Shown one piece after another: positions 9,385 to 23,909 of a stretch of 24,000 bases of DNA; the first letter of the stretch is position 1, and each line of letters begins with the position of its first letter. A model generated the notes under the pieces. It saw only the letters and a program-made list of their open reading frames with translations, searched no databases and was not told where the DNA came from. Origin of the DNA: Erysipelotrichaceae bacterium OPF54. GTDB taxonomy: Bacteria > Bacillota_I > Bacilli_A > Erysipelotrichales > Erysipelotrichaceae. The translations under genes and the position numbers were made by a program. The stretch covers positions 139,659 through 163,658 of the forward strand of contig BQKD01000001.1 of assembly GCA_022834735.1 (NCBI GenBank). Reading direction: 5' to 3'.

Positions 9385-9415
9385 TTCACTGCCAGAATGC
9401 GTTTTTTTGTATAAT
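9385..9415 (+). promoter_or_regulatory. Candidate sigma-A type promoter for the Crp/Fnr gene
   Basis: TTCACT (9385-9390) is followed after 19 nt by TATAAT (9410-9415). The GGAGGGGAG RBS and the ATG at 9449 lie downstream. Confidence 0.3.
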
Positions 9416-9448
9416 AATACAAGCAAAACGGAGGGGAGAAACATACGT

Positions 9449-10108
9449 ATGAACTATTTAAGCTATATTCCGGTCTTTGATCATCTGGCCCGATCCGAAC
9501 AGGAACGGCTGAGCCAGGCCTCTTTTATTCGAAAATTCAGAAAAAACGAGATCCTGCATAACGGTTCGCAGGACTGTACCGGACTTGTTCTTGTATTGTC
9601 AGGCCAGCTTCGGGTCTTTACGATATCCGAGGAAGGCCGGGAAATCACGATGTATCGTCTTTTCGAACGCGATCTTTGTCTTTTTTCGGCTTCCTGTATC
9701 ATACACAGCATTCAGTTTGATATGACCGTTTCGGCCGAAAAGGATGCCGAAGTTCTTATGATCCCTTCAGAAGCCTATAAAAGCGTCATGGAAGTTTCCG
9801 CGCCGCTGGCCAATTACACAAACGAAGTGATGGCAAGCCGCTTTTCGGACGTCATGTGGCTGATCGATCAGATCCTGTGGAAAAGTTTTGATAAAAGACT
9901 GGCTGGCTTTCTTTTGGAGGAGATGGATATCGAAGAAACGGATACGCTCAGGATCACGCATGAAGCGATCGGCAATCATCTGGGAAATCCGCGGGAAGTC
10001 GTGACCCGCATGCTGAAATACTTTGTGAATGAAAATCTGATCTCGCTCTCGCGCGGAACCATTGAGATCAAAGACAGAGGGGGCCTTCAAAAGATCGCGG
10101 GAAAGTAA
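9449..10108 (+). CDS. Crp/Fnr-family transcriptional regulator
   Basis: A cyclic-nucleotide-binding-like beta-roll (GLVLVLSGQLRVFTISEEGREITMYRL) is followed by a C-terminal HTH (ITHEAIGNHLGNPREVVTRMLK). No N-terminal Cys cluster is present. The ATG at 9449 has an RBS, whereas the TTG at 9407 lies inside the promoter. Confidence 0.85.
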   Translation: MNYLSYIPVFDHLARSEQERLSQASFIRKFRKNEILHNGSQDCTGLVLVLSGQLRVFTISEEGREITMYRLFERDLCLFSASCIIHSIQFDMTVSAEKDAEVLMIPSEAYKSVMEVSAPLANYTNEVMASRFSDVMWLIDQILWKSFDKRLAGFLLEEMDIEETDTLRITHEAIGNHLGNPREVVTRMLKYFVNENLISLSRGTIEIKDRGGLQKIAGK

Positions 10109-10145
10109 AAGCGCCGGATCCTGAAAACAGGACACAGCGCTTTTT
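10107..10145. terminator. Bidirectional terminator candidate between the convergent Crp/Fnr and CoADR genes
   Basis: An outer GCGC/GCGC stem (10111-10114 with 10137-10140) encloses an inner TCCTG/CAGGA stem (10119-10123 with 10128-10132). AAAA and TTTTT flank the structure. Confidence 0.5.
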
Positions 10146-10194
10146 ACTGTAGAGAGGTTAGTTAGAGTTTGTTTGAGTTTATTCGAGTTCACTT

Positions 10195-11886
10195 TTACTG
10201 ATCCATCCCGCATGGGGAAGATCTTTTGCTGAGTTCCTTTTCGCTGCGGACCGCTTCATAGAACCGGTACCCTCCGGCGAAGTTGTAAGCATCCAATCCA
10301 TGACCGCTCAGGATCCGGCACGCAATATAGCTTCGTAATCCGCTCTGGCACATCACATACACCGGCTTGTCCGTATCGAGCTCATCGAGACGTCCGCGCA
10401 GCTCGTCGACCGGAATATGGATAAAGCCGTTTATATGGCCTGCATTGAATTCAGCAGGCGTGCGTGTATCAAGGAGCGTGACCTTTCCGCTTTTCAGAAG
10501 GGGCCCGAGATCCTCGTAGTACCATTGTTTCACGAGTCCGTTTTTTATATTTTCGATCATGAAGCCAGCCATGTTGACCGGATCCTTCGCCGAAGAATAG
10601 GGCGGAGCGTAGGCAAGATCAAGTTCGGAAAGATCATATGCCTTCATTCCGGCACGGATCGCTGCCGCCAGCACATCGATCCGTTTATCGACTCCGCTGT
10701 ATCCTGCGATCTGCGCGCCAAGCAGATGATAGGTATCCTTTTCGAACAGCACTTTCAAGGTCATGAGTTCGCCGCCTGGATAATATCCGGCATGATTCAT
10801 AGGCGACAGGATCACTTTGCCGTACTCTATACCAAGCGCATTGGCGGTCTTTTCATTGATGCCCGTGGCCGCCGCTGTCATATCGAAAAGCTTGATCACA
10901 GACGAGCCCTGGCCACCTTTGTAATGGCTGTCCAGACCGCAAATCGTATCGGCAGCGATCCGGCCCTGCTTGTTGGCCGGTCCGGCAAGAGAAATGAGAG
11001 TGTCCTGCCCGGTCACAAAATTTCTGATCTGCACCGCATCGCCGACAGCATAAATATCAGGAACGGAAGTTTCCATTTGATCATTGACCACGATCGCGTC
11101 TTTGATTCCGAGTTCCAGACCAGCTTCTTTGGCAAGCGTCGTTTCAGGCGCTACGCCAATCGCCATGATCACCATGTCCGTATGGAGGGCGGGTGTGTTT
11201 TTAAGCTTCACCTCCATATGGTCTTCGTGATCGGCAAAGCCCTGTACCATCGTATCGAGCATCAGATGGATGCTGTTTCTGCGGACCTGCGCGTGAATCA
11301 AGGAGGCCATGTCCTTGTCGAACGGGGCCATGAGCTGATCAGACGCTTCCACAAGCGTCACATCAAGACCGAGATCACGCAGATTTTCTGCCATCTCGAT
11401 CCCGATGAATCCTCCGCCAACGATCACAGCAGAAGCTGGTCGTCTGGAATCTATGTAGTTTTTGATCTTCAATGTGTCCTCGACTGTTCGGATCGTAAAC
11501 ACTTTGCCGCTGTCCATGCCTTCAAACGGAGGGGTGATCGGTCTGGCGCCTGGCGAAAGCAGCAGCTTGTCATAACTTTCCTTAAAAAACTGTCCGGTTT
11601 CCACATTTTTAACGGCCACTGTTTTTGTTTCGGGATGGATGGCTGTTACTTCATGATGCACGTGCACATCAATGTTGAAACGGTCCTGGAAGCTTTGGGG
11701 TGTCTGCAAGGTCAGCTCCTTTTCGTCTTCGATCGTGCTGCCAATATAATACGGCAGTCCGCAGTTTGCGTAGGAAATGAATCCGGACCGCTCAAAGACA
11801 ACGATTTCTGCCTGTTCGTCAAGTCGGCGTATTCTTGCGGCTGCTGTCGCGCCGCCGGCCACGCCCCCTACAATGATCACTTTCAT
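10195..11886 (-). CDS. CoA-disulfide / CoA-persulfide reductase-like flavoprotein with a C-terminal rhodanese domain (CoADR-RHD)
   Basis: MKVIIVGGVAGGATAAARIRR is an FAD-binding GxGxxG motif. ISYANCGLPYYIG carries the redox Cys. A second dinucleotide fold is visible (AVIVGGGFIGIEMAE). The C-terminal rhodanese active-site loop is VYVMCQSGLRS. Confidence 0.9.
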   Translation of the reverse strand: MKVIIVGGVAGGATAAARIRRLDEQAEIVVFERSGFISYANCGLPYYIGSTIEDEKELTLQTPQSFQDRFNIDVHVHHEVTAIHPETKTVAVKNVETGQFFKESYDKLLLSPGARPITPPFEGMDSGKVFTIRTVEDTLKIKNYIDSRRPASAVIVGGGFIGIEMAENLRDLGLDVTLVEASDQLMAPFDKDMASLIHAQVRRNSIHLMLDTMVQGFADHEDHMEVKLKNTPALHTDMVIMAIGVAPETTLAKEAGLELGIKDAIVVNDQMETSVPDIYAVGDAVQIRNFVTGQDTLISLAGPANKQGRIAADTICGLDSHYKGGQGSSVIKLFDMTAAATGINEKTANALGIEYGKVILSPMNHAGYYPGGELMTLKVLFEKDTYHLLGAQIAGYSGVDKRIDVLAAAIRAGMKAYDLSELDLAYAPPYSSAKDPVNMAGFMIENIKNGLVKQWYYEDLGPLLKSGKVTLLDTRTPAEFNAGHINGFIHIPVDELRGRLDELDTDKPVYVMCQSGLRSYIACRILSGHGLDAYNFAGGYRFYEAVRSEKELSKRSSPCGMDQ

Positions 11887-12210
11887 CTATCTCATCGCCT
11901 TTCCTTTGTAGCGGCTGATCCCGCCAATGTTTTCTGCTTTCACGAAGCCGGCTTGCGTTAAATAGGAAACGGCCTGCCGGCTTCTTGCTCCGCTCTGGCA
12001 ATATACGTAAAGCGGGGTGTTTTTGTCTTTGATCTTTTTGTCGATCGTAGAGATTTTATCAAGAGGAATATTGATGCTGCCTTCGATATGTCCGCTCCGG
12101 TATTCCGGCGGTGTCCGCACATCCAGAAGAACGGCTTGTGGATCGGCTTTGTATTTGCTGACACCGGAATTGATGTCTGTACCTGCGCCTAAAAAATTAA
12201 ACAGTCCCAT
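11887..12210 (-). CDS. Single-domain rhodanese (sulfurtransferase)
   Basis: The 107-aa protein contains LLDVRTPPEYRSGHIEGSINIP and the active-site loop YVYCQSGARS. Its stop codon directly abuts the CoADR start. Confidence 0.85.
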   Translation of the reverse strand: MGLFNFLGAGTDINSGVSKYKADPQAVLLDVRTPPEYRSGHIEGSINIPLDKISTIDKKIKDKNTPLYVYCQSGARSRQAVSYLTQAGFVKAENIGGISRYKGKAMR

Positions 12211-12217
12211 TTTTTCC

Positions 12218-12523
12218 TCACAGCAGCTGTTCGATCTGGCTTTTCGGCCGATATCCCGTAACCCGGTTTTCCATTTTTCCGTTTCTGATCACGGCAAGAG
12301 TCGGGATCCCTGCCACCTGGAACCGTGCGGCCAGTTCCGGCTGTTCGTCCACGTTGATCTTGCCCACTTTGATGTCGCTTCTCTCTTTTGCGATTTCTGC
12401 AATAACGGGTCCAAGCATGCGGCATGGACCGCACCAGTCGGCATAGAAGTCGAGAAGCACAGGCTGGGGGCACCGGATCACTTCATCTATAATATTTTCT
12501 TTTGTGATTTGAATTTCAGACAT
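12218..12523 (-). CDS. trxA: Thioredoxin
   Basis: The 101-aa protein has the WCGPC active site, VGKINVDE and GIPTL. A GAAAGGAG RBS is present. Confidence 0.9.
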   Translation of the reverse strand: MSEIQITKENIIDEVIRCPQPVLLDFYADWCGPCRMLGPVIAEIAKERSDIKVGKINVDEQPELAARFQVAGIPTLAVIRNGKMENRVTGYRPKSQIEQLL

Positions 12524-12555
12524 TTGTTTGTTCTCCTTTCAGTTATCATGTCTTC

Positions 12556-12561
12556 ATTATA
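12556..12561 (-). promoter_or_regulatory. Candidate -10 box (TATAAT on the minus strand) for the trxA-rhodanese-CoADR operon
   Basis: The plus-strand ATTATA at 12556-12561 reads TATAAT on the minus strand. No good -35 box is present. The palindrome centre at 12590 would sit near -41 relative to the inferred start. Confidence 0.4.
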
Positions 12562-12571
12562 ATTGTCGATC

Positions 12572-12674
12572 CGCTCTTGTTCTGTGACATTGTCACGTAA
12601 TTCGTTTGTTTATTGTGATGTATCGCTCTTGTTCTTTGACATTGTCGCGTAATTCGTTTGTTTATTGTGATGTA
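12572..12674. repeat. Tandem direct duplication, two 51-nt copies with a 52-bp period
   Basis: Copy 1 (12572-12622) and copy 2 (12624-12674) read CGCTCTTGTTCT(G/T)TGACATTGTC(A/G)CGTAATTCGTTTGTTTATTGTGATGTA. They differ at only two positions, 12584/12636 and 12595/12647. Confidence 0.9.
12584..12596. promoter_or_regulatory. Perfect palindrome GTGACA-T-TGTCAC, a candidate operator; a degenerate second copy lies at 12636-12648
   Basis: This is a direct reading of the sequence. The copy-2 version is TTGACA-T-TGTCGC. Confidence 0.45.
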
Positions 12675-12678
12675 TAAT
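12673..12678 (+). promoter_or_regulatory. Candidate -10 box (TATAAT) for the VTC-DUF4956-CotH operon
   Basis: TATAAT lies at the 3' edge of repeat copy 2. No -35 match is seen. The copy-2 palindrome centre (12642) would sit near -43. Confidence 0.4.
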
Positions 12679-12780
12679 GCGTTTCTGGCATCGCAGGAGC
12701 ATCCGATAAGTAAACTGAGAAGATGCCTGTTAGACTGATTTTAAGAAAAGAGAAAAGATCATAAGCAAAGGAGGGGTGTT

Positions 12781-13482
12781 ATGAACACAGTGATGAGACA
12801 GGAAAAAAAATATCTGATCGACCGCGTGAAGATGGTAGAGCTCAAATCGTATTTTTCACATTTTCTTACGCTCGACCCCCACACAAAAAACGGAACGTAC
12901 CGCGTACGCAGCCTGTATTTCGATTCGATCGACGACCGGGACTATCATGAAAAGGAGGAAGGGATCGAGCTGCGGCGCAAGATCCGCCTGCGCATTTATG
13001 ATCCTGACAGCCCGTATGCGATGCTCGAAATGAAGAAGAAGGAAGGCAGCAGCCAGCAGAAGCGTTCGATGGCCATGTCGCGTCAGGATGCCGAAGAGCT
13101 GATCGGCGGACGGTATGATGTGCTGCTCCAGTACGATACGCCTTTTGCCAAAGAGTGCTATGTCGTCATGAACATGCATCTTTACCGTCCCCGCTCGATC
13201 GTGGAGTACGAGCGGATTGCGTATTGCGGGCCGGCCAATAATATCCGCATCACTTTCGATCATGATATCCGTTCGACCGAAACCGACTTCGACCTGTTTT
13301 CGAAAAATCTGAATCTGTATCCGGTTTTCGGACAGGACCGGGTCGTTCTCGAGGTCAAATACAACGGGTATTTGTTCAGTCCGATCAAGATGGCGCTGCA
13401 GAGCTGCGATCACAGCGAAGTGTCGGTCGGAAAGTACAGCCTGAGCCGCTCTGCCGGCCTGCACTATATTTATCAACTATAG
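12781..13482 (+). CDS. VTC-domain protein (polyphosphate-polymerase-like triphosphate tunnel fold)
   Basis: The 233-aa protein starts MRQEKKYLI, an E-x-K type tunnel motif. It also has YRVRSLYFDS, ELRRKIRLRIY, LEMKKK, VVLEVKYNG and KYS. It is soluble, with no TM segment. An AAAGGAGGGG RBS is present. Confidence 0.85.
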   Translation: MNTVMRQEKKYLIDRVKMVELKSYFSHFLTLDPHTKNGTYRVRSLYFDSIDDRDYHEKEEGIELRRKIRLRIYDPDSPYAMLEMKKKEGSSQQKRSMAMSRQDAEELIGGRYDVLLQYDTPFAKECYVVMNMHLYRPRSIVEYERIAYCGPANNIRITFDHDIRSTETDFDLFSKNLNLYPVFGQDRVVLEVKYNGYLFSPIKMALQSCDHSEVSVGKYSLSRSAGLHYIYQL

Positions 13483-13539
13483 GCAAGAAGACTCCCACCT
13501 CTATAGGTGAAAGATGAATTGCTAAGCTCAGTTTTTCTA

Positions 13540-13568
13540 TGGATAAAGATATAAAAATGCAGTATAAT
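13540..13568 (+). promoter_or_regulatory. Candidate promoter for tnpB inside the left end
   Basis: TGGATA (13540-13545) is followed after 17 nt by TATAAT (13563-13568). A GAGGAGG RBS lies at 13584-13590. Confidence 0.35.
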
Positions 13569-13597
13569 GAAATCAGGGAAAGTGAGGAGGAAACGAT

Positions 13598-14716
13598 ATG
13601 CCGAACAAAGCCTGCAAATTCAGACTCTATCCAACGCCAGCACAGAAGATCCTCCTTGCAAAGACATTCGGCTGTGTCCGCCTTGTCTACAACCATTGGC
13701 TCGATCGAAAGATCAGCCAATACAAAGAAGATCAGACAACCTTGAGTTACACTTTCTGTGCCAAAGAGCTGGCTGTACTGAAGAAAACAGAAGAGTCCGC
13801 CTTCCTGAAGGAAGTCGACAGCATTTCTCTGCAGCAGTCGCTCCGCCATCTGGATCAGGCCTTCCAGAACTTCTTCAAACGGCCCGGAACAGGATTTCCA
13901 CGATTCAAATCCAAAAGAAACAGAAAGAACAGCTATTCGACCGTCTGCGTCAATCAGAACATTCTCCTGTCCGACGGCTGTTTGAAACTGCCAAAGATCG
14001 GACAGGTCAAGGTGAAACAGCATCGGGAGATTCCTGAATCGTATGTTCTCAAGTCGGTGACTGTAAGCCAGAGCCCGAGCGGAAAGTATCATGCAAGCAT
14101 TTCGTTCGAGTACGAAAACCAAGTATCGGAAAGAAAGCCGCACACTTTCCTTGGACTCGACTTCTCGATGAACAGACTGTACAAAGACAGCGAAGGAAAC
14201 GAAGCAGAGTATCCTAAGTATCACAGGCAAGCGGAAAAGAAATTGAAACGGGAACAGCGCAAGCTGTCGCACATGCAGAAAGGCTCCAGAAACTGGGAGA
14301 AACAGCGGATCAAGGTCGCAAAGCTGCATGAAAAGGTTGCCAATCAAAGAAAGGATTTTCTGCATAAGCGATCAAGAGAGATTGTCAATGCGTATGACTG
14401 CGTCTGCATAGAAGACCTGGATATGAAAGCGATGGCAAGATCGCTGCATTTTGGCAAATCGGTTCATGACAACGGATGGGGCATGTTCACTGCTTTCCTG
14501 AAGTACAAACTGGAAGAAGAGGGAAAACAGCTGATCCGGATCGACAAATGGTTTCCTTCGAGCCAGACCTGCTCAGTATGCGGGTATAAGAATCCGGAAA
14601 TAAAAGATCTCGGCATGCGGGAATGGGACTGCCCTCGATGCAAAAGCCATCACGATCGGGATCTCAATGCGGCAATCAATATAAGAAAGGAAGGCATGCG
14701 GATCGTAATGGCATAG
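13598..14716 (+). CDS. tnpB: TnpB (IS200/IS605 OrfB) RNA-guided endonuclease-type protein
   Basis: MPNKACKFRLYPTPAQKILLAKTFGCVRLVYNHWL is a typical OrfB N-terminus. The RuvC-like acidic residues lie in LGLDFSM, CIEDLDMK and HDRDLNAAINI. A zinc ribbon is present (CSVCGYKN...CPRCKSHH). Confidence 0.92.
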   Translation: MPNKACKFRLYPTPAQKILLAKTFGCVRLVYNHWLDRKISQYKEDQTTLSYTFCAKELAVLKKTEESAFLKEVDSISLQQSLRHLDQAFQNFFKRPGTGFPRFKSKRNRKNSYSTVCVNQNILLSDGCLKLPKIGQVKVKQHREIPESYVLKSVTVSQSPSGKYHASISFEYENQVSERKPHTFLGLDFSMNRLYKDSEGNEAEYPKYHRQAEKKLKREQRKLSHMQKGSRNWEKQRIKVAKLHEKVANQRKDFLHKRSREIVNAYDCVCIEDLDMKAMARSLHFGKSVHDNGWGMFTAFLKYKLEEEGKQLIRIDKWFPSSQTCSVCGYKNPEIKDLGMREWDCPRCKSHHDRDLNAAINIRKEGMRIVMA

Positions 14717-14856
14717 CCTGTAAATAAAAAAGAACCGTGGGACACACGGGGATAGCTCGCTTATGCTTGATGAGATATCGTCATCGAACGAGAACCGACT
14801 GTTCGCTTTTTAAGCGAAAGGAAGCCCCCACCTCTATAGGTGGGGGAGGATGTCAC
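14660..14856 (+). ncRNA. Probable omega-RNA (reRNA) scaffold of TnpB; 5' end not determinable
   Basis: Position follows the known TnpB arrangement, overlapping the tnpB 3' end and the right end. Four consecutive hairpins are seen at 14735-14749, 14769-14785, 14802-14818 and 14825-14846. The guide would be the flanking sequence just 3' of the element end. Confidence 0.35.
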
Positions 14857-14874
14857 TACTAAAGGAGGTTTATA

Positions 14875-15552
14875 ATGAGAGACATTTTGGAAGGCATGCT
14901 TGCTGAATCCGGAACTTTGACCACCGAAGAGATCTTAATGCATATTTTCGCGGCTCTGGTATTAGGCATGTTTATTTATATATCGTATTATATCAGCCAC
15001 GCGGGAACGGCATATTCCCGCAAATTCAATATTTCGCTCGTCTGTCTGACAGTCCTGACCGCCACGGTCATGACCGTGATCGGCAACAATCTTTCGCTTT
15101 CGCTCGGTATGGTCGGCGCCTTGTCGATCGTCCGGTTCCGGACAGCGGTCAAAGATACGAGAGACACGATCTACATATTCTGGACGATCGTGGTCGGTAT
15201 CTGCTGCGGGGTCGCGGACTATCTGGTCGCGTGTGCCGGAAGTGCCGTGATCTTTGTCATCCTTTTGTTCCTCGGCCACGTGAAAAACGAAAACCGGATC
15301 CTGCTCATTGTCAAAGGGAGCAGGATGTACGAGGATCAGATCGAAAAGGAGATCTTCGATTATTTCAGCCGCAAGGCGCTGCTCCGCACCAAGAACACGA
15401 CGCCGACCACAGTGGAATATATTTACGAGCTGTCCAGGAAAATGCTGAATGAAAGCAGCCGGAGCGGCACATCGATCACCAGCGCTCTTTATGAGATCCC
15501 CGATACGCAGTATGTCGATATTGTCGCGCAGAGCGATGAGATCAGCGGATAG
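14875..15552 (+). CDS. DUF4956-family membrane protein
   Basis: An N-terminal TM bundle contains GALSIVRFRTAVKDTRDT, the hallmark I recall for DUF4956, and is followed by a soluble C-terminal domain. An AAAGGAGG RBS is present. Confidence 0.8.
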   Translation: MRDILEGMLAESGTLTTEEILMHIFAALVLGMFIYISYYISHAGTAYSRKFNISLVCLTVLTATVMTVIGNNLSLSLGMVGALSIVRFRTAVKDTRDTIYIFWTIVVGICCGVADYLVACAGSAVIFVILLFLGHVKNENRILLIVKGSRMYEDQIEKEIFDYFSRKALLRTKNTTPTTVEYIYELSRKMLNESSRSGTSITSALYEIPDTQYVDIVAQSDEISG

Positions 15553-15554
15553 AG

Positions 15555-17063
15555 ATGAAATACAAGATCATCAGCGCCGTATCGGTCGTTCTTCTGCTCG
15601 TCCTTCCGCTCGCTCTGCAAGCCCTGCGTTCGGACAGCGCGGTATCCAGGGCACGGGGACGATACATTCAGCATCTTGAAGCGCCAAAGGAACAAAGCGC
15701 TTCGAGCGCAACGGACCCTGTGCATTTTCAGACCCATCTGCCGGTCGTGGAAATCGATACGGACGATATACCGGTCCCGGGCAGCTGGATCCTGAACGCA
15801 CAGGGAGCACGGACCGGAACGGAAACGGTCAACGGACAGGAACAGATCGAAGCCCATATCCGCTGGATCGATCACGATACGTCTGTCAAAACATACAAGG
15901 ATGACGGGCTCGACACCCGCGCTCTGATCCGGATCCGGGGCAATTCCTCGCGCGCGTTTGACAAAAAAAGCTACCAGATCAAGCTGATCGATGAAAAGGG
16001 AAACGAAGAGAAAGCGCAGCTTTTCGGGATGGGCGCGCACGATAACTGGGCGCTGTACGGACCGTATCTGGATAAAACGCTCATCCGCAACTACCTGCTC
16101 ATGAACGTTTCGGCTTCGGTCATGGGATATGCGCCAGAAGTGCGCTTCTGCGAAGTTTTTCTCAACGGCCGGTATCAGGGACTGTATGTGCTCATGGAAA
16201 CGATCCGCAAAGGCGGTTCGCGTATCGATATAGAAACGTACGAGCCGGGGAAAGCGGAATTCGACTATATCCTGCGGATCGACCGCAATGATCCGGACAG
16301 CCGGGTCGTCAACTCGTTTTCAACCTACACGTTCCGGCAGGAAATGCTCGGAAGCAGCGCGGGCGTGCAGGTCATTTATCCGCCAGCCTCAAAGCTGGAC
16401 GAAAAAGGACTGAAATATATCGAAGACAATTTGAGCGCGTTCGAAAAGGCACTGTATTCCTCGGATTACCGGAGCGCTTCCAGGGGCTATCGCCGCTACA
16501 TCGATGTCGATTCGTTTGTCGACTATTATGTGCTCCAGGAATTTCTTGCGATCTCGGACGCCGGCACCCGGTCCACGTATTTATACCGCGATCGGTCCGG
16601 CAAGATAAAGATCGGTCCGGTCTGGGACTACAACAATGCCTGGAACAATTATTTCATGTCGTTTGACGAAGAGGGAAGCGAATTCATGCTGGTTGACCGG
16701 ATCTGGTACGACCGGCTGCTCAGCGACCCGTACTTCAATGAAAAAGTGATCGAACGCTACAGGGAACTTAGAAAAACGTTCCTTAGCGATGAAGCCCTGC
16801 TCAGCGAAATGGATGAGATCGTGGATTATCTGGGTAGTGCGGTCGGACGCAATGAAAGCGTCTGGGGCTATGCGTACGATCCGTCCCTGCTTGATGGCAA
16901 CCAGAAGCTTTTTCCGGATGAGCGCAATCCGGAAAACTATGAAAGCGCGCTCGAACAGATGAAAGAGTATATGCGCCGGCGCGGCGCGTGGATGGACCGG
17001 CATATCGATTCGCTGCGTCAGTATGCCCATTCATCGCGTACGGAGAAATACGAAACGAGGTAA
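15555..17063 (+). CDS. CotH-family (atypical kinase fold) protein with an N-terminal signal or anchor sequence
   Basis: The N-terminus is a signal or anchor sequence (MKYKIISAVSVVLLLVLPLALQAL). IRIRGNSSRAFDKKSYQIKL, YLDKTLIRNYL, YQGLYVLMETI and GPVWDYNNAWNN are typical CotH segments. The start lies 2 nt after the DUF4956 stop. Confidence 0.85.
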   Translation: MKYKIISAVSVVLLLVLPLALQALRSDSAVSRARGRYIQHLEAPKEQSASSATDPVHFQTHLPVVEIDTDDIPVPGSWILNAQGARTGTETVNGQEQIEAHIRWIDHDTSVKTYKDDGLDTRALIRIRGNSSRAFDKKSYQIKLIDEKGNEEKAQLFGMGAHDNWALYGPYLDKTLIRNYLLMNVSASVMGYAPEVRFCEVFLNGRYQGLYVLMETIRKGGSRIDIETYEPGKAEFDYILRIDRNDPDSRVVNSFSTYTFRQEMLGSSAGVQVIYPPASKLDEKGLKYIEDNLSAFEKALYSSDYRSASRGYRRYIDVDSFVDYYVLQEFLAISDAGTRSTYLYRDRSGKIKIGPVWDYNNAWNNYFMSFDEEGSEFMLVDRIWYDRLLSDPYFNEKVIERYRELRKTFLSDEALLSEMDEIVDYLGSAVGRNESVWGYAYDPSLLDGNQKLFPDERNPENYESALEQMKEYMRRRGAWMDRHIDSLRQYAHSSRTEKYETR

Positions 17064-17066
17064 TTT

Positions 17067-19157
17067 ATGAAACGATATCTCATCATTATGACATGTATCG
17101 TGTTCGCGATCGCAGCCGTCGTCTTTGCGTACGATCAGGCTTATTTTCCGAAAAGGAGAGCCACGCGGGTGACTTTCCCTTTTCATGTCGAGAACACGGC
17201 CATCATCGAGGAAAAGACCAATGAACCGTTTCTTGTCAAGGGCGTGGATGTCGACAGCTTCGTTCCGGGCTATTACGATACGGATCATGCGGTGAGCAAG
17301 CAGAAATACATGGAATGGTTCGAACAGATCGCCGATATGAACGCCAATACAGTGCGTGCGGTCAGGATCTACGATCCCGATTTCTATAATGCGTTCTATG
17401 AATTCAACACGCAGCAGATCGGAAAGAAAGAGAGTCCTTTGTATCTGATCCAGGTCGTCGGGGTGACGGACTATGCCCAGAACAATGCCCGGGATGCCTG
17501 GTCCGACGAATTTTACGGATCGCTGGTGCGCAACGCGAAACGGTGCGTGGATGTCGTGCACGGCCGGCAGTTTCTGCCGTACGCCCGAACATCCGGATAC
17601 GGACTGTATACGCGGGATATCTCGCCATGGCTTCTTGCCTATGAGATCGGCAGCCGCTGGGAAGCGGACACGATTGCCTATACGGACCACAAAGACGACA
17701 GGACCGGCGCGTATGAAGGAGAGTATATCGAGGTGGACGGAAATGCGACATCGTTCGAGCGCCTGCTTGGCCAGGTCATGGACACGCTCTGCCAGTATGA
17801 AACGGACAAATACGCCCAGCAGCATCTGATCGCGGGCACGACCCAGCTCAATACCGATCCGTTCGATTTCGAACCGCTTTATGATCAGCAGATCGGCAAG
17901 AGCGCGTCGATCGACTTTTCCCGCTTCAAGGCCGGACCTCGTCTGGTAAGCGGACTGATCATTGCCTACAGCTATCATGACTATGGACACGATTTTTCGA
18001 AAGATCTGACCCCCGACGAACAGGAACGCCTGAAAGGCGTGCTTGACCAGGACAATGCCGGGACCGGGGCAGATCCTTACCTGCGCCTGTTTGAACACTA
18101 CAGCACCCATCCGGTCATCCTGGTCAACGGCGGGTATTCGAGCAGCCGGGGACAGACCGGGCTGGATGGGCCGTACACGGAACAGGAGCAGGGCGAGGCG
18201 CTCGTGCGCTTGTATAGAAAAGCGCTGGCTTCAGGCCTTGACGGAATGGTGCTGACGGGCTGGCAGGACAACTGGTCGCGCAGCGACTGGAACACGAGCC
18301 CGTATGTCGAAGAGGGACAGCAGCCGTTCTGGCACGATCTTCAGTCCGAAGGACAAGGGTTCGGGCTGCTGGAGTTCAAGCCGCTCGGAATCAACGGAGC
18401 GATCGAAATCGATGGCGAAACGCAGGAATGGACGAAAAAGGAACAGATCCTGAGCTGCCCGGTCGGGAAGCTGTCGGTCCAGTTCGATGCAGAAGGGGTA
18501 TATATGAAAATAGACTGGGCCAAAGACGTGCAGTTTCCGGTCGTGATCCCGATCGATGTGACGCCGAACAGCGGGGCGCGCCAGATCGAGGGCGAGCCGT
18601 ACACATTTGACAGGGACGCGGATTTTGTGCTGGTGCTCGACAATAAAAAAGAAGCCATCCTGCGGGTGCAGACGTATTACGAGAGCGTGCGGGCAGCCTG
18701 GAACGCGCAGATCCGCGGTTCGGATGCGTATTCGATCCAGGTCCCCGAACCACATGAAGCACGGTTCGTGCCGGTTGAGTCGGTCGCCGAAGGGGCGATC
18801 GTGGATACGGCCGGACACCTGACCTATTTTATGCCGACGGTCGCCTCGGGCGTACTGCGCTGCGCAAAAGGGGCGGATCTGTATTCGATGGCGGATGTGA
18901 CAGAACTGCGGCTGCCGTGGGGCCTGCTGAACTTTTCGGCGCCGAACCAGGCGGCTGTCCACGATGATTACTACCTGCATTACGGTATCGAAAGCCTTCC
19001 TGTCGAAAATATGTATGTCGGGCTTGGCAACGCGGACGATCCGGATATCGTGATGGAAAAAATAAAGCTGCCGCGCTGGGTCCGCAATTTCGAGTACGAG
19101 GAACGGCTGAAGGATTCGTATGCGATCGTTCAGGACGCCTGGAAGGAAGAACGATAG
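17067..19157 (+). CDS. Membrane-anchored extracytoplasmic protein of unknown function; the N-terminal part looks like a clan GH-A (beta/alpha)8 glycosidase
   Basis: The 696-aa protein has a single N-terminal TM (MKRYLIIMTCIVFAIAAVVFAY). The segment FLVKGVDVDSFVPGYY....YMEWFEQIADMNANTVRAVRIYDPDFYNAFYEF resembles the first strands of TIM-barrel glycosidases or transglycosylases. No family could be assigned by eye. Codon usage and translational coupling support it being coding. Confidence 0.7.
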   Translation: MKRYLIIMTCIVFAIAAVVFAYDQAYFPKRRATRVTFPFHVENTAIIEEKTNEPFLVKGVDVDSFVPGYYDTDHAVSKQKYMEWFEQIADMNANTVRAVRIYDPDFYNAFYEFNTQQIGKKESPLYLIQVVGVTDYAQNNARDAWSDEFYGSLVRNAKRCVDVVHGRQFLPYARTSGYGLYTRDISPWLLAYEIGSRWEADTIAYTDHKDDRTGAYEGEYIEVDGNATSFERLLGQVMDTLCQYETDKYAQQHLIAGTTQLNTDPFDFEPLYDQQIGKSASIDFSRFKAGPRLVSGLIIAYSYHDYGHDFSKDLTPDEQERLKGVLDQDNAGTGADPYLRLFEHYSTHPVILVNGGYSSSRGQTGLDGPYTEQEQGEALVRLYRKALASGLDGMVLTGWQDNWSRSDWNTSPYVEEGQQPFWHDLQSEGQGFGLLEFKPLGINGAIEIDGETQEWTKKEQILSCPVGKLSVQFDAEGVYMKIDWAKDVQFPVVIPIDVTPNSGARQIEGEPYTFDRDADFVLVLDNKKEAILRVQTYYESVRAAWNAQIRGSDAYSIQVPEPHEARFVPVESVAEGAIVDTAGHLTYFMPTVASGVLRCAKGADLYSMADVTELRLPWGLLNFSAPNQAAVHDDYYLHYGIESLPVENMYVGLGNADDPDIVMEKIKLPRWVRNFEYEERLKDSYAIVQDAWKEER

Positions 19158-19158
19158 G

Positions 19159-20154
19159 ATGGGAACGGTCATATTTGTGATTCTGGTGCTGTACATGGCA
19201 TTCAGCGTGATCCTTGCGGTATTCAATTTGTATTATCTGCGGCAGATGGAGCGGCAGAGCCGACGGCAGATGGATACGGACAAATTCAGGCAGCGCCTTC
19301 TGGATGCGCTGGAACCGGCGGGAGAAAAGGCGGAGCGGCGGCGCATCAGATGGTACGTGCGCGCGGGCAGCCTGGGCCGTTTCAAAGAGGAGATGCGTTC
19401 TTTCCGAAAAGAAAATCCTGCTCTTGCGGATGCGTATTTTAAAAAGTACGCGGTCGATTATATGCGGCTGCTGCCGGCGATCCGGGAGGCGGAGCTTACC
19501 GAACGGACGATCTATGCTCGCTTTGTGGCGGAAAACGGGATCAACCGCGCTTATAAGAGCGAAGCGTTTGCGCGCGGCATGATCGATCTGATGGACCGCT
19601 CTTCCATGTTCCTGATCCAGGGGGTGCTTTGTGCTCTGGCTTCGATGGGGATGCCGGATGCGGTTGACGAAACGTTCAAAGTAATCACGGAACGGGGCTA
19701 TTACTGCTACAGTAAAAATATCGCTGCGGCCCTGATGAAGTTTTCGGGCTCTTTTGAAGAGCTGCTTGCGGTGCTTATCCGCTACCGGCACACCTACTCG
19801 GTCGAGATCCAGTGTGCCATCCTGCAGGTCCTGCGTCGTCAGGGGAGCGTCTATGCCGACGAAATGCTGGCTCTGCTCAAAGACGAAAGCGAAGACACGG
19901 AAGTGCGGATCGAGGCGCTGCGCTATCTGCTCAGATACCCGATCCGTCCGGCTGCCGACTATATCGCGTCCATGATTTCCGGGCGGAAGGAAACGAACTG
20001 GGTGATCGTGGCGCTCGGGCTGCGGCTGCTCGCGGATTTCCCCGATCCTGAAAACAGGGCGCTGCTGGAAGGGCTGGCGGACGATCCGATCTGGTACGTT
20101 CGTCAGAATGCTGCCGCTTCGCTTGAAAAAATGAAGAAAGGGGCCCGAAAATGA
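19159..20154 (+). CDS. Single-pass membrane protein with a cytoplasmic HEAT/PBS-lyase-like repeat domain
   Basis: The ATG at 19159 has a GGAAGGAAG RBS and lies 1 nt after the upstream stop. The TM segment MGTVIFVILVLYMAFSVILAVFNLYY is followed by a positively charged stretch. HEAT-like repeats include EDTEVRIEALRYLL and DDPIWYVRQNAAASLEKM. Confidence 0.7.
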   Translation: MGTVIFVILVLYMAFSVILAVFNLYYLRQMERQSRRQMDTDKFRQRLLDALEPAGEKAERRRIRWYVRAGSLGRFKEEMRSFRKENPALADAYFKKYAVDYMRLLPAIREAELTERTIYARFVAENGINRAYKSEAFARGMIDLMDRSSMFLIQGVLCALASMGMPDAVDETFKVITERGYYCYSKNIAAALMKFSGSFEELLAVLIRYRHTYSVEIQCAILQVLRRQGSVYADEMLALLKDESEDTEVRIEALRYLLRYPIRPAADYIASMISGRKETNWVIVALGLRLLADFPDPENRALLEGLADDPIWYVRQNAAASLEKMKKGARK

Positions 20155-21560
20155 ACATTCAGATGATCCTGTATATCGCGGAACTGTTTTTTGTTGTCTA
20201 TCTGATCATTTATTCTACGTTTCTGTTTGTCTCGATCCTTTTAGGGACGGTCGAGCTTTACAATATGCACCAGATGAAGCAGTACCGGATCGACCGGCTC
20301 GACGAGATCGATATTCCGGTATCGATCGTGGTGCCGGCCCATAATGAAAGCGTGACGATCGTTCAGACCATCCGCTCCCTGCTTGCGCTTGATTATCCGG
20401 TTTACGAGATCATCGTGGTGGATGACGGCTCGAGCGATGATACGGCATCCAAGGTGATCGAAACGTTCGGCCTGCACGAGATCGAGGCAAGCCTGCGCGA
20501 CGATCTGCGTTCCCGGCCGATCCGGCAGAGCTATACCGGTCATACGGACGGGGTGCATATCCTGCTGCTGGTCAAGGAAAACGGCGGGAAGGCGGACAGC
20601 CTGAACGCGGGGATCAACTGTGCGCATTTTCCGTATTTTCTGTGCATGGATGCGGATTCCCTGCTGCAGAAGGATGCGCTGATGGAAATTGTCAAGCCGG
20701 TCATGGAGCATGAAAATGTGGTGGCGTGCGGCGGTCTGATCCGGATCGTGAACGGCGCCGTGTTCCAGGATGGCCGGGTGGTGAAATACAGGATCCCGTA
20801 CCGGATCCTGGTTGGTACGCAGATGCTTGAATACGATCGTTCGTTTCTTGGTTCCCGGCTGTTCCTGAACCGGTTCAACGGCAATCTGATCGTTTCGGGA
20901 GCGTTCGGCCTGTTTCAGAAAAAGGCGGTGCTGCAGGTGGGCGGCTATTCGACCGATTCGCTGGGCGAGGATATGGATCTGGTCATGAAGCTGCATACGT
21001 ATTTTCGCATGAACCGCAGACCGTATACGATCGAATATGTGCCGAAGGCGGTATGCTGGACGCAGGCGCCTTCAAGCATAAAAGACATTTTTGTGCAGCG
21101 CCGGCGCTGGCATATCGGGCTCATGCAGTGCCTGAACAAATACTGGCGGATGTTTTTGTCGTTTGATTTTGGCGCGCTGGGCTGGCTTTCCTATCCGTAT
21201 TATTTGTTTTACGAGTATTTGTCGCCGTTTATCGAGCTGGCCGGGGTCGTGGTCACGCTGCTGGCCTTATGGTTCCGGCTGATCAACTTTTCCTATATGG
21301 TCACGTTCTTTCTTGTTTATTTTGTGTTCGGGGTGTTCATGAGCGTGAGCGCGTTCCTGGCCCGGGTGTATTCGCAAAATGTCCTGGTGACACGTCGGGA
21401 CATCGGGCGTGTCTGTCTCATGGCTGTGGTGGAAGCGTTTTTCACCCGGTTCGTGGTGCTGGCGGCGCGGATCAGCGCGCTTTTCAGGCTGCGCAGGAAA
21501 AAGATGGAGTGGGGCTCGATCACGCGGACCGAAAATCCGGGACCGGAGAAAAAACAATGA
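20151..21560 (+). CDS. Processive family-2 glycosyltransferase (PgaC/IcaA/cellulose-synthase-like polysaccharide synthase)
   Basis: The motifs are VVPAHNES...YPVYEIIVVDDGSSDDT, NGGKADSLNAGI, MDADS (DxD), GEDMDL and QRRRW (Q-x-x-R-W). TM segments lie at both the N- and C-termini. The start overlaps the upstream stop (ATGA). Confidence 0.9.
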   Translation: MNIQMILYIAELFFVVYLIIYSTFLFVSILLGTVELYNMHQMKQYRIDRLDEIDIPVSIVVPAHNESVTIVQTIRSLLALDYPVYEIIVVDDGSSDDTASKVIETFGLHEIEASLRDDLRSRPIRQSYTGHTDGVHILLLVKENGGKADSLNAGINCAHFPYFLCMDADSLLQKDALMEIVKPVMEHENVVACGGLIRIVNGAVFQDGRVVKYRIPYRILVGTQMLEYDRSFLGSRLFLNRFNGNLIVSGAFGLFQKKAVLQVGGYSTDSLGEDMDLVMKLHTYFRMNRRPYTIEYVPKAVCWTQAPSSIKDIFVQRRRWHIGLMQCLNKYWRMFLSFDFGALGWLSYPYYLFYEYLSPFIELAGVVVTLLALWFRLINFSYMVTFFLVYFVFGVFMSVSAFLARVYSQNVLVTRRDIGRVCLMAVVEAFFTRFVVLAARISALFRLRRKKMEWGSITRTENPGPEKKQ

Positions 21561-22087
21561 GGAAACGATGGCTGGCCGGAGTGGCGGCTCTCTTTCTGGC
21601 ATGCATACTGAACGGGTGCAGGACGCAGGCACATACGGCCCTTTTTTCCTGGGACCCACAGCAGGTCGGGCAAACGGATCAGAAAGAAATGGATGAGATC
21701 CTTTCTGTGTACGGGATCGATGCTCTCTATCAGCTGATGGATCGAAAAAATACGGCTGGACTGGAGCGGTTCATGGCGCATCTGGCCAAACAGGGTGTGG
21801 CGGTGTATGCGCTGGCTGGCGAGACGGAATGGGCCCTGCCGTCCGGCGCGGACGCTATGGAAGGGGAGCTGGAATGGCTGTTCTCGCTTTCCGGTTCGCT
21901 GAAGAACGGTTTTTCAGGGATCGTGCTGGATGTGGAGCCATATCGGAACGAACGCTGGGAAAAGGATCCGAGGCAGGGGATGAAGGAATATGTGGCGAAT
22001 ATGAAGCGCGCATACGAGTCGTGCCGGCAGGTACGCATGGCCTGGCCGAACGCAATACCTATGCCAATACGGACCGGGAACACGTAG
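21557..22087 (+). CDS. Lipoprotein with a glycoside-hydrolase-like motif (GIVLDVEPY); the 3' end is possibly frameshifted
   Basis: MRKRWLAGVAALFLACILNGC contains a lipobox (LNGC). The start overlaps the GT2 stop (ATGA). A different frame (to 22185) continues with genome-typical codons after the stop at 22087. Confidence 0.65.
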   Translation: MRKRWLAGVAALFLACILNGCRTQAHTALFSWDPQQVGQTDQKEMDEILSVYGIDALYQLMDRKNTAGLERFMAHLAKQGVAVYALAGETEWALPSGADAMEGELEWLFSLSGSLKNGFSGIVLDVEPYRNERWEKDPRQGMKEYVANMKRAYESCRQVRMAWPNAIPMPIRTGNT

Positions 22088-22210
22088 AGAGTTCGAAAAG
22101 GCGGCTGCAGGAATCGTATCCGGATATCCGGTTTGCCTATCATTCGCTGGAGGCCTTGAAAAAACAGGAACGTTCCATACAATGAAAGCAAGGAACAAGA
22201 GAAGGGAAAC

Positions 22211-22879
22211 ATGGAGAACAGACTACACAAAATTGCCTGCCGCATCCAGAAAGAAGGGGTCGTGCGGCGCGAATACGGTCACGCGTATGTGGCTGATGAT
22301 ATGGAAAAGGGGCTGGATCTGCGCCCGCGTCTGGAAGCGAAAGAGGCGATCGGACGAGAGATTGCAAAGCGTCTGGAGGATTTTCACACGGTCCTGCTCG
22401 ATTGTTCTTCAACGGTTCATAAGGCGGCTGCTCCGCTCAACCGGATGTCTTCGCGGGATATTTTCACCAACTCGCTTGTTCTGGCTGAGCGGCTGGATGC
22501 GCAGCGGCATTGTGTGTTCGTGCTTCCAGGGCGCAAGCGTTCGAAAAACGAAAGCCTGATCGGGCCGTGGACCGAGGAATATATCGCGAGGATCCATGTG
22601 GATGTCTGTGTGCTCGGCTCTTCGGGTGTCCTGCATGCGCAGGGACCAACGTGCCACTCTTACACCGAAATTTCGACGAAGAGGAAAATGATGGAAGCGG
22701 CTGATTTTGTGATCGTGGCGCTGGATGCGGGCAAGTTTCCGGAAAGCGGCCTGCACACCTATGCGTCCTGGGACGAGGTGGATGCGGTTATTACGGATCG
22801 CATGCTGGACAGGAAGACATATGCGTTCCTGATGGAAAAGATGGAAGTATGGGTGGCGCAGGATGAAGTGTCCGGATAG
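22211..22879 (+). CDS. DeoR-family C-terminal sensor domain protein lacking most of the N-terminal HTH (possible 5'-truncated remnant)
   Basis: The segments LLDCSSTV, VFVLPG, IHVDVCVLGSSGV, TEISTKRKMMEAADFVIVALDAGKF and AVITD fit the DeoR-C/sugar-phosphate-binding fold. An in-frame stop at 22157-22159 leaves no room for the ~55-aa HTH. The residual KEGVVRREYGHAYV resembles only the wing. Confidence 0.6.
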   Translation: MENRLHKIACRIQKEGVVRREYGHAYVADDMEKGLDLRPRLEAKEAIGREIAKRLEDFHTVLLDCSSTVHKAAAPLNRMSSRDIFTNSLVLAERLDAQRHCVFVLPGRKRSKNESLIGPWTEEYIARIHVDVCVLGSSGVLHAQGPTCHSYTEISTKRKMMEAADFVIVALDAGKFPESGLHTYASWDEVDAVITDRMLDRKTYAFLMEKMEVWVAQDEVSG

Positions 22880-22912
22880 CGAAAAGAACGGTGAAAATGG
22901 TATAGTGAGGCC

Positions 22913-23080
22913 ATGACATTAAATACGATAAAAAGTAAGCTGTGTCAGCTGGCATTCTTTCTGATTGTTTGCGGTTTTGCGTTTGCGGGCATGCCGGTCC
23001 ATGCCGAGGGCGAAGCGGCTGCCTGGGGAGCGCATACGGCTACGGTCATGATCGATCCGGGTCATGGGGGTTGTAGATAA
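22913..23080 (+). pseudogene. N-acetylmuramoyl-L-alanine amidase (Amidase_3-type); only the N-terminal 55 codons remain
   Basis: A signal peptide (MTLNTIKSKLCQLAFFLIVCGFAFAGMPVHA) is followed by VMIDPGHGG, the start of the amidase_3 catalytic domain. The frame then stops at 23078-23080, where base composition changes abruptly. Confidence 0.6.
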
Positions 23081-23361: not shown

Positions 23362-23550
23362 ATGAGCGAATCAAAACAGAATTCGAATACCTATTCTTCT
23401 TTTGCTGAAGTCCGCCTTCCTGATCCGGGTCCCAGGAAACAAACCGGATCGGATCGGCCAGCTATCGTTATTCAGTCTTCCAAAGGCAAGATCTATATCC
23501 ATAATCATACGGAACCGGTGCTGATTCGAACGGTCCTCGATTCATTATGA
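23362..23550 (+). CDS. IS66-family accessory protein orf1 (TnpA-like)
   Basis: This 62-aa protein sits immediately upstream of and overlaps IS66 tnpB (ATGA). Its C-terminal pattern IYIHNHTEPVLIRTVLDSL resembles IS66 orf1 tails. Confidence 0.7.
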   Translation: MSESKQNSNTYSSFAEVRLPDPGPRKQTGSDRPAIVIQSSKGKIYIHNHTEPVLIRTVLDSL

Positions 23551-23909
23551 GATCTCTTGATTTTAACCGCATCGATCATGTGTACATCCGTCCCGGCTAC
23601 ACGGATCTGCGCAAAGGCATTGACGGCCTGTGCCTGCTGGTTCAATCTTCCATGAAGCTGGACCCGCGTCAGAATATCCTCTTCCTGTTCTGCGGCAGAA
23701 AGACTTCCACCATCAAAGGACTGCTTTGGGAAGAGGATGGGTTCATGCTCATCACCAAGCGTCTAGAGAACGGAAAATTTCAATGGCCCAGAACGGAGGA
23801 AGAAGTCATTGCGCTGAGCGAACAGGAGCTCAGATGGCTGCTTGACGGACTGAGCATTGTACAGAAAAATGCGATTCGTCCAGCACGAAAACGTGCATAT
23901 ATTGTGTGA
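23547..23909 (+). CDS. tnpB: IS66-family accessory protein TnpB (orf2)
   Basis: YIRPGYTDLRKGIDGLCLLVQ, DPRQNILFLFCGRKTSTIKGLLWEEDGFMLITKRLENGKFQWP is the hallmark IS66 Orf2 sequence. This family is unrelated to IS605 TnpB. Confidence 0.9.
   Translation: MRSLDFNRIDHVYIRPGYTDLRKGIDGLCLLVQSSMKLDPRQNILFLFCGRKTSTIKGLLWEEDGFMLITKRLENGKFQWPRTEEEVIALSEQELRWLLDGLSIVQKNAIRPARKRAYIV

Follow-up and report, generated by a model that had tools for sequence, protein, structure and literature searches.

Three protein families, a VTC-domain (triphosphate-tunnel) protein, a DUF4956 membrane protein and a CotH-family kinase-like protein, are encoded close together in a 24,000-nt stretch of the Erysipelotrichaceae bacterium OPF54 genome (contig BQKD01000001.1, assembly GCA_022834735.1), hereafter termed the window, whose positions are used for all coordinates given below. 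The association of these families is itself already published. Whitfield et al. (2020; PMC7112168) reported a conserved set of accessory genes, cotH, a polyphosphate (polyP) polymerase gene, DUF4956 and DUF4832, that adjoins pel operons in streptococci, clostridia and bifidobacteria, and the S. intermedius genes SIR_1594/1593/1592/1591 have been deleted singly (mBio 2025, PMC12345266). Deletion of the CotH gene led to less Pel and less aggregation, deletion of the DUF4956 gene led to more Pel, yet less aggregation, and deletion of the VTC gene left both Pel and aggregation unchanged; its authors proposed a connection with phosphate metabolism, noted that the polyP might stay in the cytoplasm, and reported finding no triad outside pel loci (PMC12345266). 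The second described relative is NELoc-2, a necrotic-enteritis-associated locus of Clostridium perfringens, the gene list of which was published by Lepp et al. (2010; PMC2879425) with the gene at the DUF4956 position mis-annotated as tubulin/FtsZ. A 2024 survey (PMC11677781) adds a polysaccharide deacetylase to NELoc-2. No report of a biochemical activity for bacterial VTC, DUF4956 or exported CotH proteins was found in the papers searched. A preliminary description of the window had treated this genetic context as undescribed, and on that point it is corrected by the papers above: the window locus is a further example of a described cassette and operon type.

The triad very probably constitutes a conserved accessory cassette at the start of one operon, translationally packed and dedicated to a secreted polysaccharide, with the architecture of NELoc-2. 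The VTC protein, a soluble polypeptide of 233 aa that matches PF09359 and is a putative polyP polymerase, is encoded at 12781..13482; the DUF4956/MgtC-like membrane protein (225 aa, PF16316) is encoded at 14875..15552; and the CotH protein (502 aa, PF08757), which is predicted to be secreted or N-terminally anchored, is encoded at 15555..17063. All three genes are on the + strand, and the open reading frames (ORFs) and Pfam matches agree with the preliminary description in this respect. Further genes follow on the same strand, encoding X696, an N-terminally anchored extracytoplasmic GH-A-like protein (TIM-barrel glycosidase/transglycosylase-like, 696 aa; 17067..19157), a HEAT-repeat protein with an N-terminal transmembrane (TM) helix (331 aa, PF13646; 19159..20154), a polytopic, processive GT2 synthase of PgaC/IcaA-, NodC- or chitin-synthase-like type (469 aa, TIGR03937; 20151..21560) and a lipoprotein, truncated here to 176 aa (21557..22087), whose gene closes the operon in this genus. 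A gap of 2 nt separates the end of the DUF4956 stop codon (15552) from the CotH ATG (15555), and the gaps that follow are 3 nt before X696, 1 nt before the HEAT gene, and -4 nt before both the GT2 and the lipoprotein genes. The triad had at first been presented as a stand-alone module, but it is the first half of a seven-gene GT2-synthase exopolysaccharide operon that co-diverges as a unit.

The comparison with NELoc-2 was made by gene order and sizes in the published table. In the same order as the window, NELoc-2 encodes VTC (230-232 aa), 'tubulin/FtsZ' (222-226 aa), CotH (497 aa), a hypothetical protein (685 aa), a HEAT protein (377 aa) and a GT2 'chitin synthase' (466 aa), the window counterparts being of 233, 225, 502, 696, 331 and 469 aa. 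A mobile-element gene, a resolvase gene, interrupts the VTC/DUF4956 region of NELoc-2, and a TnpB insertion sequence (IS) is found there in the window. In NELoc-2, unlike in the window, the VTC-DUF4956 pair is duplicated and is accompanied by sigma and anti-sigma genes and by a polysaccharide deacetylase, the last of which fits a polymer of N-acetylglucosamine (GlcNAc) type. The window has a single VTC-DUF4956 pair together with the TnpB IS and the lipoprotein gene, and domain searches of its proteins found no polysaccharide deacetylase.

As in the Gram-positive pel accessory sets, the same three families are contiguous and on the same strand in the window, beside a synthase-dependent exopolysaccharide operon and with a glycoside-hydrolase-type fourth gene, and here too CotH is predicted to be secreted, VTC to be cytoplasmic and DUF4956 to be MgtC-like with an ACT domain. 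However, the machinery in the window is a GT2 synthase with a HEAT protein rather than pelDEADAFG, the fourth gene is GH-A/GH72-like rather than DUF4832, and the order is VTC-DUF4956-CotH upstream of the synthase, whereas the pel set lies downstream of pel. No match to GT4, PelG, PelD or DUF4832 was found among the window neighbours. The present locus and the plasmid-borne and distant loci described below contradict the pel-only occurrence of the triad. The polytopic GT2 synthase, accessory membrane protein and extracytoplasmic glycosidase-like enzyme, with cyclic di-GMP (c-di-GMP) genes alongside, resemble systems for poly-N-acetylglucosamine, cellulose and chitin-like polymers (PgaC/IcaA, BcsA, NodC); unlike in those systems, the synthase is the equivalog of none of them and there is no PgaB, PgaD or PilZ.

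Conservation of the locus was surveyed with a VTC-alignment scan of one genome per species, which gave at least 584 confirmed loci, the best 80 of which were kept. ORFs were called and clustered, and the six frames were re-scored with family hidden Markov models. The denominators given here are the loci with enough downstream sequence, and the best 80 over-represent near relatives of the query, with a VTC identity of 47% or more. The genes that come after VTC were DUF4956 in 72/75 and CotH in 70/71 loci, X696 followed CotH in 63 of 64, and the HEAT and GT2 genes were present in 62/63 and 58/59, respectively. Genes for c-di-GMP signalling (GGDEF, EAL or HD-GYP) were found in 57 of the 80 loci, the commonest encoding an SBP-TM-GGDEF-EAL protein and placed after the synthase. 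The carriers were Clostridia, Erysipelotrichales and other Bacilli, and Eggerthellaceae. Across 48 complete loci, the pairwise-distance matrices of the six families correlated at r=0.71-0.91, and the mean identity of VTC and DUF4956 (61-62%) was on a par with that of the synthase (63%), indicating that the six genes are inherited and selected as one unit. The co-occurrence of PF09359, DUF4956 and PF08757 that the preliminary description had proposed is therefore borne out, and it extends to other phyla and to plasmids. The operon was rearranged or degraded in four loci (L011, L012, L039 and L040): in Agathobaculum (L011 and L012) the VTC gene is downstream of X696-HEAT-GT2-GGDEF/EAL, L039 has no DUF4956 gene, and the CotH gene of L040 is broken into two ORFs.

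Given the bias of the survey to close relatives, distant relatives were also examined. The VTC profile matches 8,279 clusters at 50% identity, and VTC-DUF4956 occurs in gut Clostridia, Erysipelotrichales and Actinomycetota, on plasmids, and in NELoc-2 of C. perfringens. A tblastn search of plasmids returned four records. The whole operon is present on a 67-kb Planococcus plasmid, and the Pseudobutyrivibrio xylanivorans plasmid pNP95 (L091 8221-11360; VTC 32% identical) carries the genes in the order CotH-VTC-DUF4956 inside a heteropolysaccharide cluster with GT2, GT4, GT61, acyl- and pyruvyl-transferases and a GH99-like protein. Another product of the pNP95 cluster, a very large 'phosphodiester glycosidase family protein', is a hint of phosphodiester-linked glycans. 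In Nonomuraea, VTC-DUF4956-CotH lies in a neighbourhood where no synthase is obvious. In Paenibacillus and Cohnella, VTC-DUF4956 was followed in three of four loci by a Cthe_2159 protein (PF14262, carbohydrate-binding) and in the fourth by a 783-aa protein without a Pfam match; CotH was absent from all four, and a two-component system lay alongside in three. In the Cthe_2159 loci (L094 7001-10249, L095 7001-10476 and L093 7935-11353) the VTC and DUF4956 genes overlap by 4 nt, and in two of the three an OmpR-type two-component system is encoded divergently upstream. VTC-DUF4956-Cthe_2159 looks like a second conserved triad. The invariant core is thus VTC and DUF4956, then a third protein that is usually CotH, and the usual home of this core is in polysaccharide loci of several unrelated types.

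The VTC protein matches PF09359 with E=7.9e-41 (140.6 bits against a cut-off of 23) over residues 6-221, and it contains no hydrophobic segment. Its AlphaFold2 model (pLDDT 88) was compared with the PDB using Foldseek, and the best folds were those of Vtc4 (3g3r/3g3q; ranks 1-9, E 7.5e-14 to 5e-11, TM-score 0.73-0.76), followed by Vtc2 (2e-9), ygiF (2e-8) and CYTH cyclases (6e-8). Vtc2 is non-catalytic and ygiF is a triphosphatase. As modelled, the eight-stranded tunnel fold would be nearer to the catalytic Vtc4 domain than to other triphosphate tunnel metalloenzymes (TTMs), the triphosphatases and cyclases among them, which agrees with the initial description of the protein as polyP-polymerase-like. 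Alternating Arg, Lys and Glu residues on its strands are invariant in 20 orthologues (R6/E8/K10, R65/K67/R69/R71, E83/K85/K87, Y143/R145, E191/K193 and K218), a pattern that fits a tunnel lined for a polyanion and metals. A VTC protein identical to that of the window was found in metagenomes and metagenome-assembled genomes labelled uncultured Dubosiella. Yeast VTC couples polyP synthesis to translocation along a basic path (PMC9911596). The window resembles the eukaryotic complex in its predicted Vtc4-like tunnel fold and in the genetic coupling of a soluble polymerase-like domain to a membrane protein; unlike the eukaryotic complex (Vtc4 polymerase plus a Vtc1/2/3 channel), the membrane partner is MgtC-like, and domain searches found no SPX domain and no DUF202/Vtc1-type TM domain in any operon protein.

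The DUF4956 protein matches PF16316 with E=3.1e-12 (47 bits against a cut-off of 30.6) and belongs with at least 7,998 homologues. Its sequence has 4-5 hydrophobic segments, and the AlphaFold2 model, built with database homologues (pLDDT 73), contains five TM helices and a C-terminal beta-alpha-beta-beta-alpha-beta (ACT-like) domain, as would be expected of the MgtC/SapB/YhiD family. The best PDB matches of this C-domain were the MgtC C-domains 7qa5 and 2lqj, and these were weak (E=6e-3, target-normalised TM-score 0.61-0.62). The window protein differs from MgtC/SapB/YhiD in scoring under the Pfam gathering threshold for MgtC (PF02308; 7e-4, 20.4 bits against 31.4), while many of its close homologues carry a precomputed PF02308 match, and also in its distinctive RFRTAxKDxRD motif and its obligate pairing with VTC. 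The longer motif GNNxxLSLGMVGALSIVRFRTAxKDxRDT is invariant in DUF4956 orthologues. The positive-inside rule, read by eye, puts the ACT-like domain and the invariant RFRTAxKDxRD loop on the cytoplasmic side, and the basic loop would therefore share a compartment with VTC.

The CotH protein matches PF08757 with E=3.9e-62 (211 bits against a cut-off of 23.8) over residues 125-480. Its N terminus consists of MKYK and then a 17-residue hydrophobic stretch, a signal or an anchor, and 68 of 70 orthologues have an N terminus of this kind. All of 28 orthologues, as well as the distant VTC-linked proteins of Pseudobutyrivibrio and Nonomuraea, retain D335 and W357-D358, which in an alignment with B. cereus CotH (5jd9) fall on NFD...WDYD. 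The catalytic and metal-binding aspartates of the CotH kinase family are thus conserved, with spacing identical to that of B. subtilis/B. cereus CotH, and the pair presumably corresponds to D228 and D251 of the B. subtilis protein. CotH proteins have similarity to Fam20. Unlike the spore-coat CotH proteins, the window CotH is predicted to be exported, stands outside a sporulation context, is only ~20% identical to the solved structure, and has no CotB/CotG-type Ser-rich substrates near it, the operon itself included. An active-site signature for VTC-linked CotH proteins (HN to ST after the catalytic Asp) was considered and rejected, since the distant L091 and L092 proteins differ there. The window CotH, like the window VTC and DUF4956 proteins, retains every residue that is invariant among its orthologues. 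The assignments made at the outset, of a soluble VTC, a polytopic DUF4956 and a signal-bearing, kinase-like CotH, are therefore upheld by the hydrophobic segments, by the conservation of this topology and by the invariant Asp pair.

VTC is separated from the rest of the operon by a TnpB-only IS200/IS605 element on the + strand (13490..14850, boundaries approximate). Its TnpB coding sequence (13598-14716, 372 aa) scores 438.6 bits against a curated cut-off of 425 (NF038281, NCBIfam) and matches OrfB_IS605/TnpB in Pfam; TnpA is absent from the element, which is therefore non-autonomous. Near-identical subterminal hairpins bound the element at 13495-13510 and 14828-14843 (chance expectation, 0.01 matches). 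A sister species (L006-L009), whose VTC is 74% identical and whose flanks and operon are the same, has a VTC-DUF4956 spacer of 16 nt that contains no IS, so the element is a true insertion, and VTC is set apart by the IS alone, as had been supposed along with the 2-nt DUF4956-CotH gap. The element is present at this position in every same-species contig that was read; the insertion is real and fixed in the species, with no sign of gene decay. The IS thus landed in the spacer of this Dubosiella-like genome without damage to either gene. The Shine-Dalgarno sequence 5' of DUF4956 is intact, the element is oriented in the same direction as the operon, and no terminator-like site was found on the + strand inside it. 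The 3' end of the element (14700-14875) is predicted to form a stable fold with a terminal 9-bp hairpin (-55.5 kcal/mol, z=-3.1); it has no Rfam match and is consistent with a guide (omega) RNA region.

Among the downstream products, X696 has no Pfam match in the window, but 12 of 27 orthologues weakly match GH72 (best 3.8e-6), and the X696 profile matches a PDB chain of a GH2 catalytic domain (2e-4) around the glutamate E372 of an invariant 'SExG'. Identification of X696 as DUF4832 was rejected, because no member matches DUF4832 and the weak matches are GH72/GH2-like. The HEAT protein matches PF13646 with E=1.5e-9 and has a single TM-like N-terminal helix. The GT2 synthase, with four hydrophobic segments, matches the TIGR03937 PgaC_IcaA model with E=2.3e-43 (148.7 bits against an equivalog cut-off of 422), its matches to NodC- and chitin-synthase-type models likewise fall under the equivalog cut-offs, and its precomputed Pfam domains are Glycos_transf_2, Glyco_tranf_2_3 and Chitin_synth_2; it probably acts on a GlcNAc-type polymer. 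The lipoprotein has a lipobox-like N terminus (MRKRWLAGVAALFLACILNGC) and no Pfam match. At ~22031-22270 the window and L001 lack ~190 bp and ~70 bp that are present in the same-species strains L002-L005, and these deletions shorten the lipoprotein from the 279 aa of other strains to 176 aa (its gene is full-length in L002-L005 and L006-L009) and remove the helix-turn-helix of a DeoR regulator, of which only the DeoRC domain is left (222 against 232 aa). A family of 278-308-aa lipoproteins, with no significant Pfam match and possibly TIM barrels, ends the operon in Dubosiella and is encoded directly upstream of VTC elsewhere (L090 4470-5396 on the Planococcus plasmid, L023, L028, L037 and L089), so this gene moves around the cassette.

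Upstream, the divergent intergenic region between a thioredoxin gene (-) and VTC (+) holds a 52-nt tandem repeat (12572-12675), present in two copies in the window and three in strain L002, each unit of which contains the palindrome GTGAC-ATT-GTCAC; this is possibly a regulator-binding or promoter region with copy-number variation. A block at 9407-12523, between cutC and VTC, encodes a Crp/Fnr-type regulator (9407-10108), a CoA-disulfide-reductase-like protein with a rhodanese domain, a rhodanese and a thioredoxin, and it is missing at the same position in the sister species (L006 9423-10001). At the other edge of the window (23547-23909), an IS66 Orf2-like gene (TnpB_IS66, E=7.9e-36) represents a second mobile element adjoining the operon. 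Over 12000-23000, Rfam gave no match to any known RNA at E<=0.1, riboswitches for c-di-GMP and other ligands included.

From the gene content, gene order, conservation, folds and topology shown above, we infer a polymerase activity, an export step, a phosphate donor and an acceptor, which could be joined into one mechanism. At the cytoplasmic face of the membrane, the soluble VTC tunnel enzyme would convert ATP into polyP. It would dock on DUF4956, with the invariant basic loop (R87, R89, K93, R96) and the ACT-like domain facing the cytoplasm, and a DUF4956 oligomer would pass the polyanion outward, or couple its delivery. The anchored outer CotH, with its intact Asp pair, would then use polyP in phosphorylating the growing glycan or some other constituent of the matrix or wall, and this phosphorylation would change the charge, retention or amount of the polymer. 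The idea that polyP feeds the kinase is the most economical reading of the conserved cytosol/membrane/outside arrangement, the predicted Vtc4-like fold, the basic loop of DUF4956 and the retention of VTC-DUF4956 with different third partners. The glycan or matrix of the operon itself is proposed as the acceptor because a CotB/CotG-like substrate is lacking, the cassette tracks polysaccharide loci, and related secretory-pathway kinases include glycan kinases. Consistent with the mechanism, the S. intermedius CotH and DUF4956 deletions alter both Pel level and aggregation (PMC12345266).

Nevertheless, this mechanism is put forward only tentatively, as a possibility that is open to considerable doubt, on account of a series of observations that weigh against it. 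MgtC relatives are known as regulators, not transporters, and no protein-kinase-fold enzyme is known to use polyP. VTC-DUF4956 or VTC-CotH fusions were not seen among the best 150 family representatives, two of the longer of which look like chimeras with YchF or EAL fragments. A strict supply chain would give three like deletion phenotypes, whereas in S. intermedius the effects of CotH and DUF4956 on Pel are opposite and the VTC deletion is silent (PMC12345266), and the simple linear chain first envisaged is not sustained by these data. In addition, DUF4956 is unrelated to the Vtc1-type channel and nonhomologous to any known polyP channel, so that it could be termed a VTC-like 'translocase', as the preliminary description had it, by analogy at most; it has only five TM helices, and the confidence of its model is modest. 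The match of the bacterial VTC to Vtc4 is by fold only: sequence and profile searches against Vtc4 in the PDB gave no alignment at E<=1, and no one-to-one mapping onto R264, R266 and E426 of yeast Vtc4, mutation of which kills the enzyme (PMC9911596), was obtained from them. Finally, the IS may uncouple VTC expression from the remaining operon in this strain. What stands of the original interpretation, in which polyP feeds an exported kinase, is the co-occurrence, the topology, the predicted Vtc4-like fold and the CotH Asp pair, and what falls is the autonomous module, the translocase as more than an analogy, the linear chain and the novelty of the context; as a whole it is partly supported.

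The main rival explanation, which is itself doubtful on present evidence, is that the cassette is regulatory. DUF4956 and the VTC-like protein would tune synthase output, or the ATP, phosphate or c-di-GMP status inside the cell; polyP, if made, would stay cytoplasmic with no export, and CotH would be a secreted kinase acting on protein targets in the matrix, the wall or the host with whatever ATP is available. The MgtC-like architecture of DUF4956 argues for this, as does the setting of the operon among c-di-GMP signalling genes, and the S. intermedius phenotypes and the suggestion by those authors of cytoplasmic polyP point the same way, as does Salmonella MgtC, which works by protein contacts with F-ATPase and PhoR (cited in PMC12345266). 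A regulatory role, however, leaves unexplained a Vtc4-like fold that is as conserved as the synthase, and a third protein, CotH or Cthe_2159, that always comes after VTC-DUF4956 even without a nearby synthase. It could also be that polyP is the exported product itself, an anionic, cation-binding matrix partner of the polysaccharide that CotH or Cthe_2159 binds or organises rather than uses as a phosphodonor. This comes after the regulatory explanation and seems quite unlikely. It would suit the preservation of the cytosol/membrane/outside arrangement while the third partner swaps between CotH and Cthe_2159, and the link of the triad to cationic or deacetylated polymers, namely Pel (PMC7112168) and the product of a locus with a deacetylase, NELoc-2 (PMC11677781); yet the catalytic aspartates of CotH are invariant across very distant members, which argues for catalysis, the window encodes no deacetylase, and the export problem is the same as for the polyP-to-kinase mechanism.

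Two further explanations concern the locus as a whole. With an IS, a truncated last gene and a truncated DeoR regulator, the cassette in this genome might be a crippled remnant, and the fact that every contig read from this species has the IS between VTC and DUF4956, together with the window deletions in the lipoprotein gene and the DeoR helix-turn-helix relative to other strains, would agree with this. However, all six core ORFs are intact with their orthologue-invariant residues retained, the ribosome-binding site before DUF4956 is preserved, and the IS, co-oriented with the operon, carries no + strand terminator-like site, so that decay is very unlikely. Adjacency of the three genes by chance, with no functional link, has practically no likelihood left, being refuted by the survey counts (72/75 and 70/71), the co-divergence (r ~0.8) and the recurrence of the triad in other phyla and on plasmids.

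Three or more unrelated polysaccharide machineries, among them a GT2 synthase, pel and a heteropolysaccharide cluster, are accompanied by the cassette. Since the machineries vary and CotH can be replaced by Cthe_2159, the problem reduces to what the cell surface receives from VTC and DUF4956. The breadth of the cassette and its independence from pel make it worth following up, and its range of hosts offers tractable test organisms. The fullest form of the polyP-to-kinase proposal, in which a bacterial VTC-type synthase and an MgtC-like partner deliver polyP across the membrane and an exported CotH uses polyP, not ATP, on a polysaccharide or matrix component, is unlikely to be correct. If it were true, it would provide the first bacterial VTC-type synthase/translocase, the first molecular function for the MgtC-like DUF4956 family, and the first polyP-driven enzyme of protein-kinase fold outside the cell. 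If polyP is an exported currency, this would explain how secreted bacterial kinases are powered, and would overturn the view of VTC-type polyP synthesis as restricted to eukaryotes.

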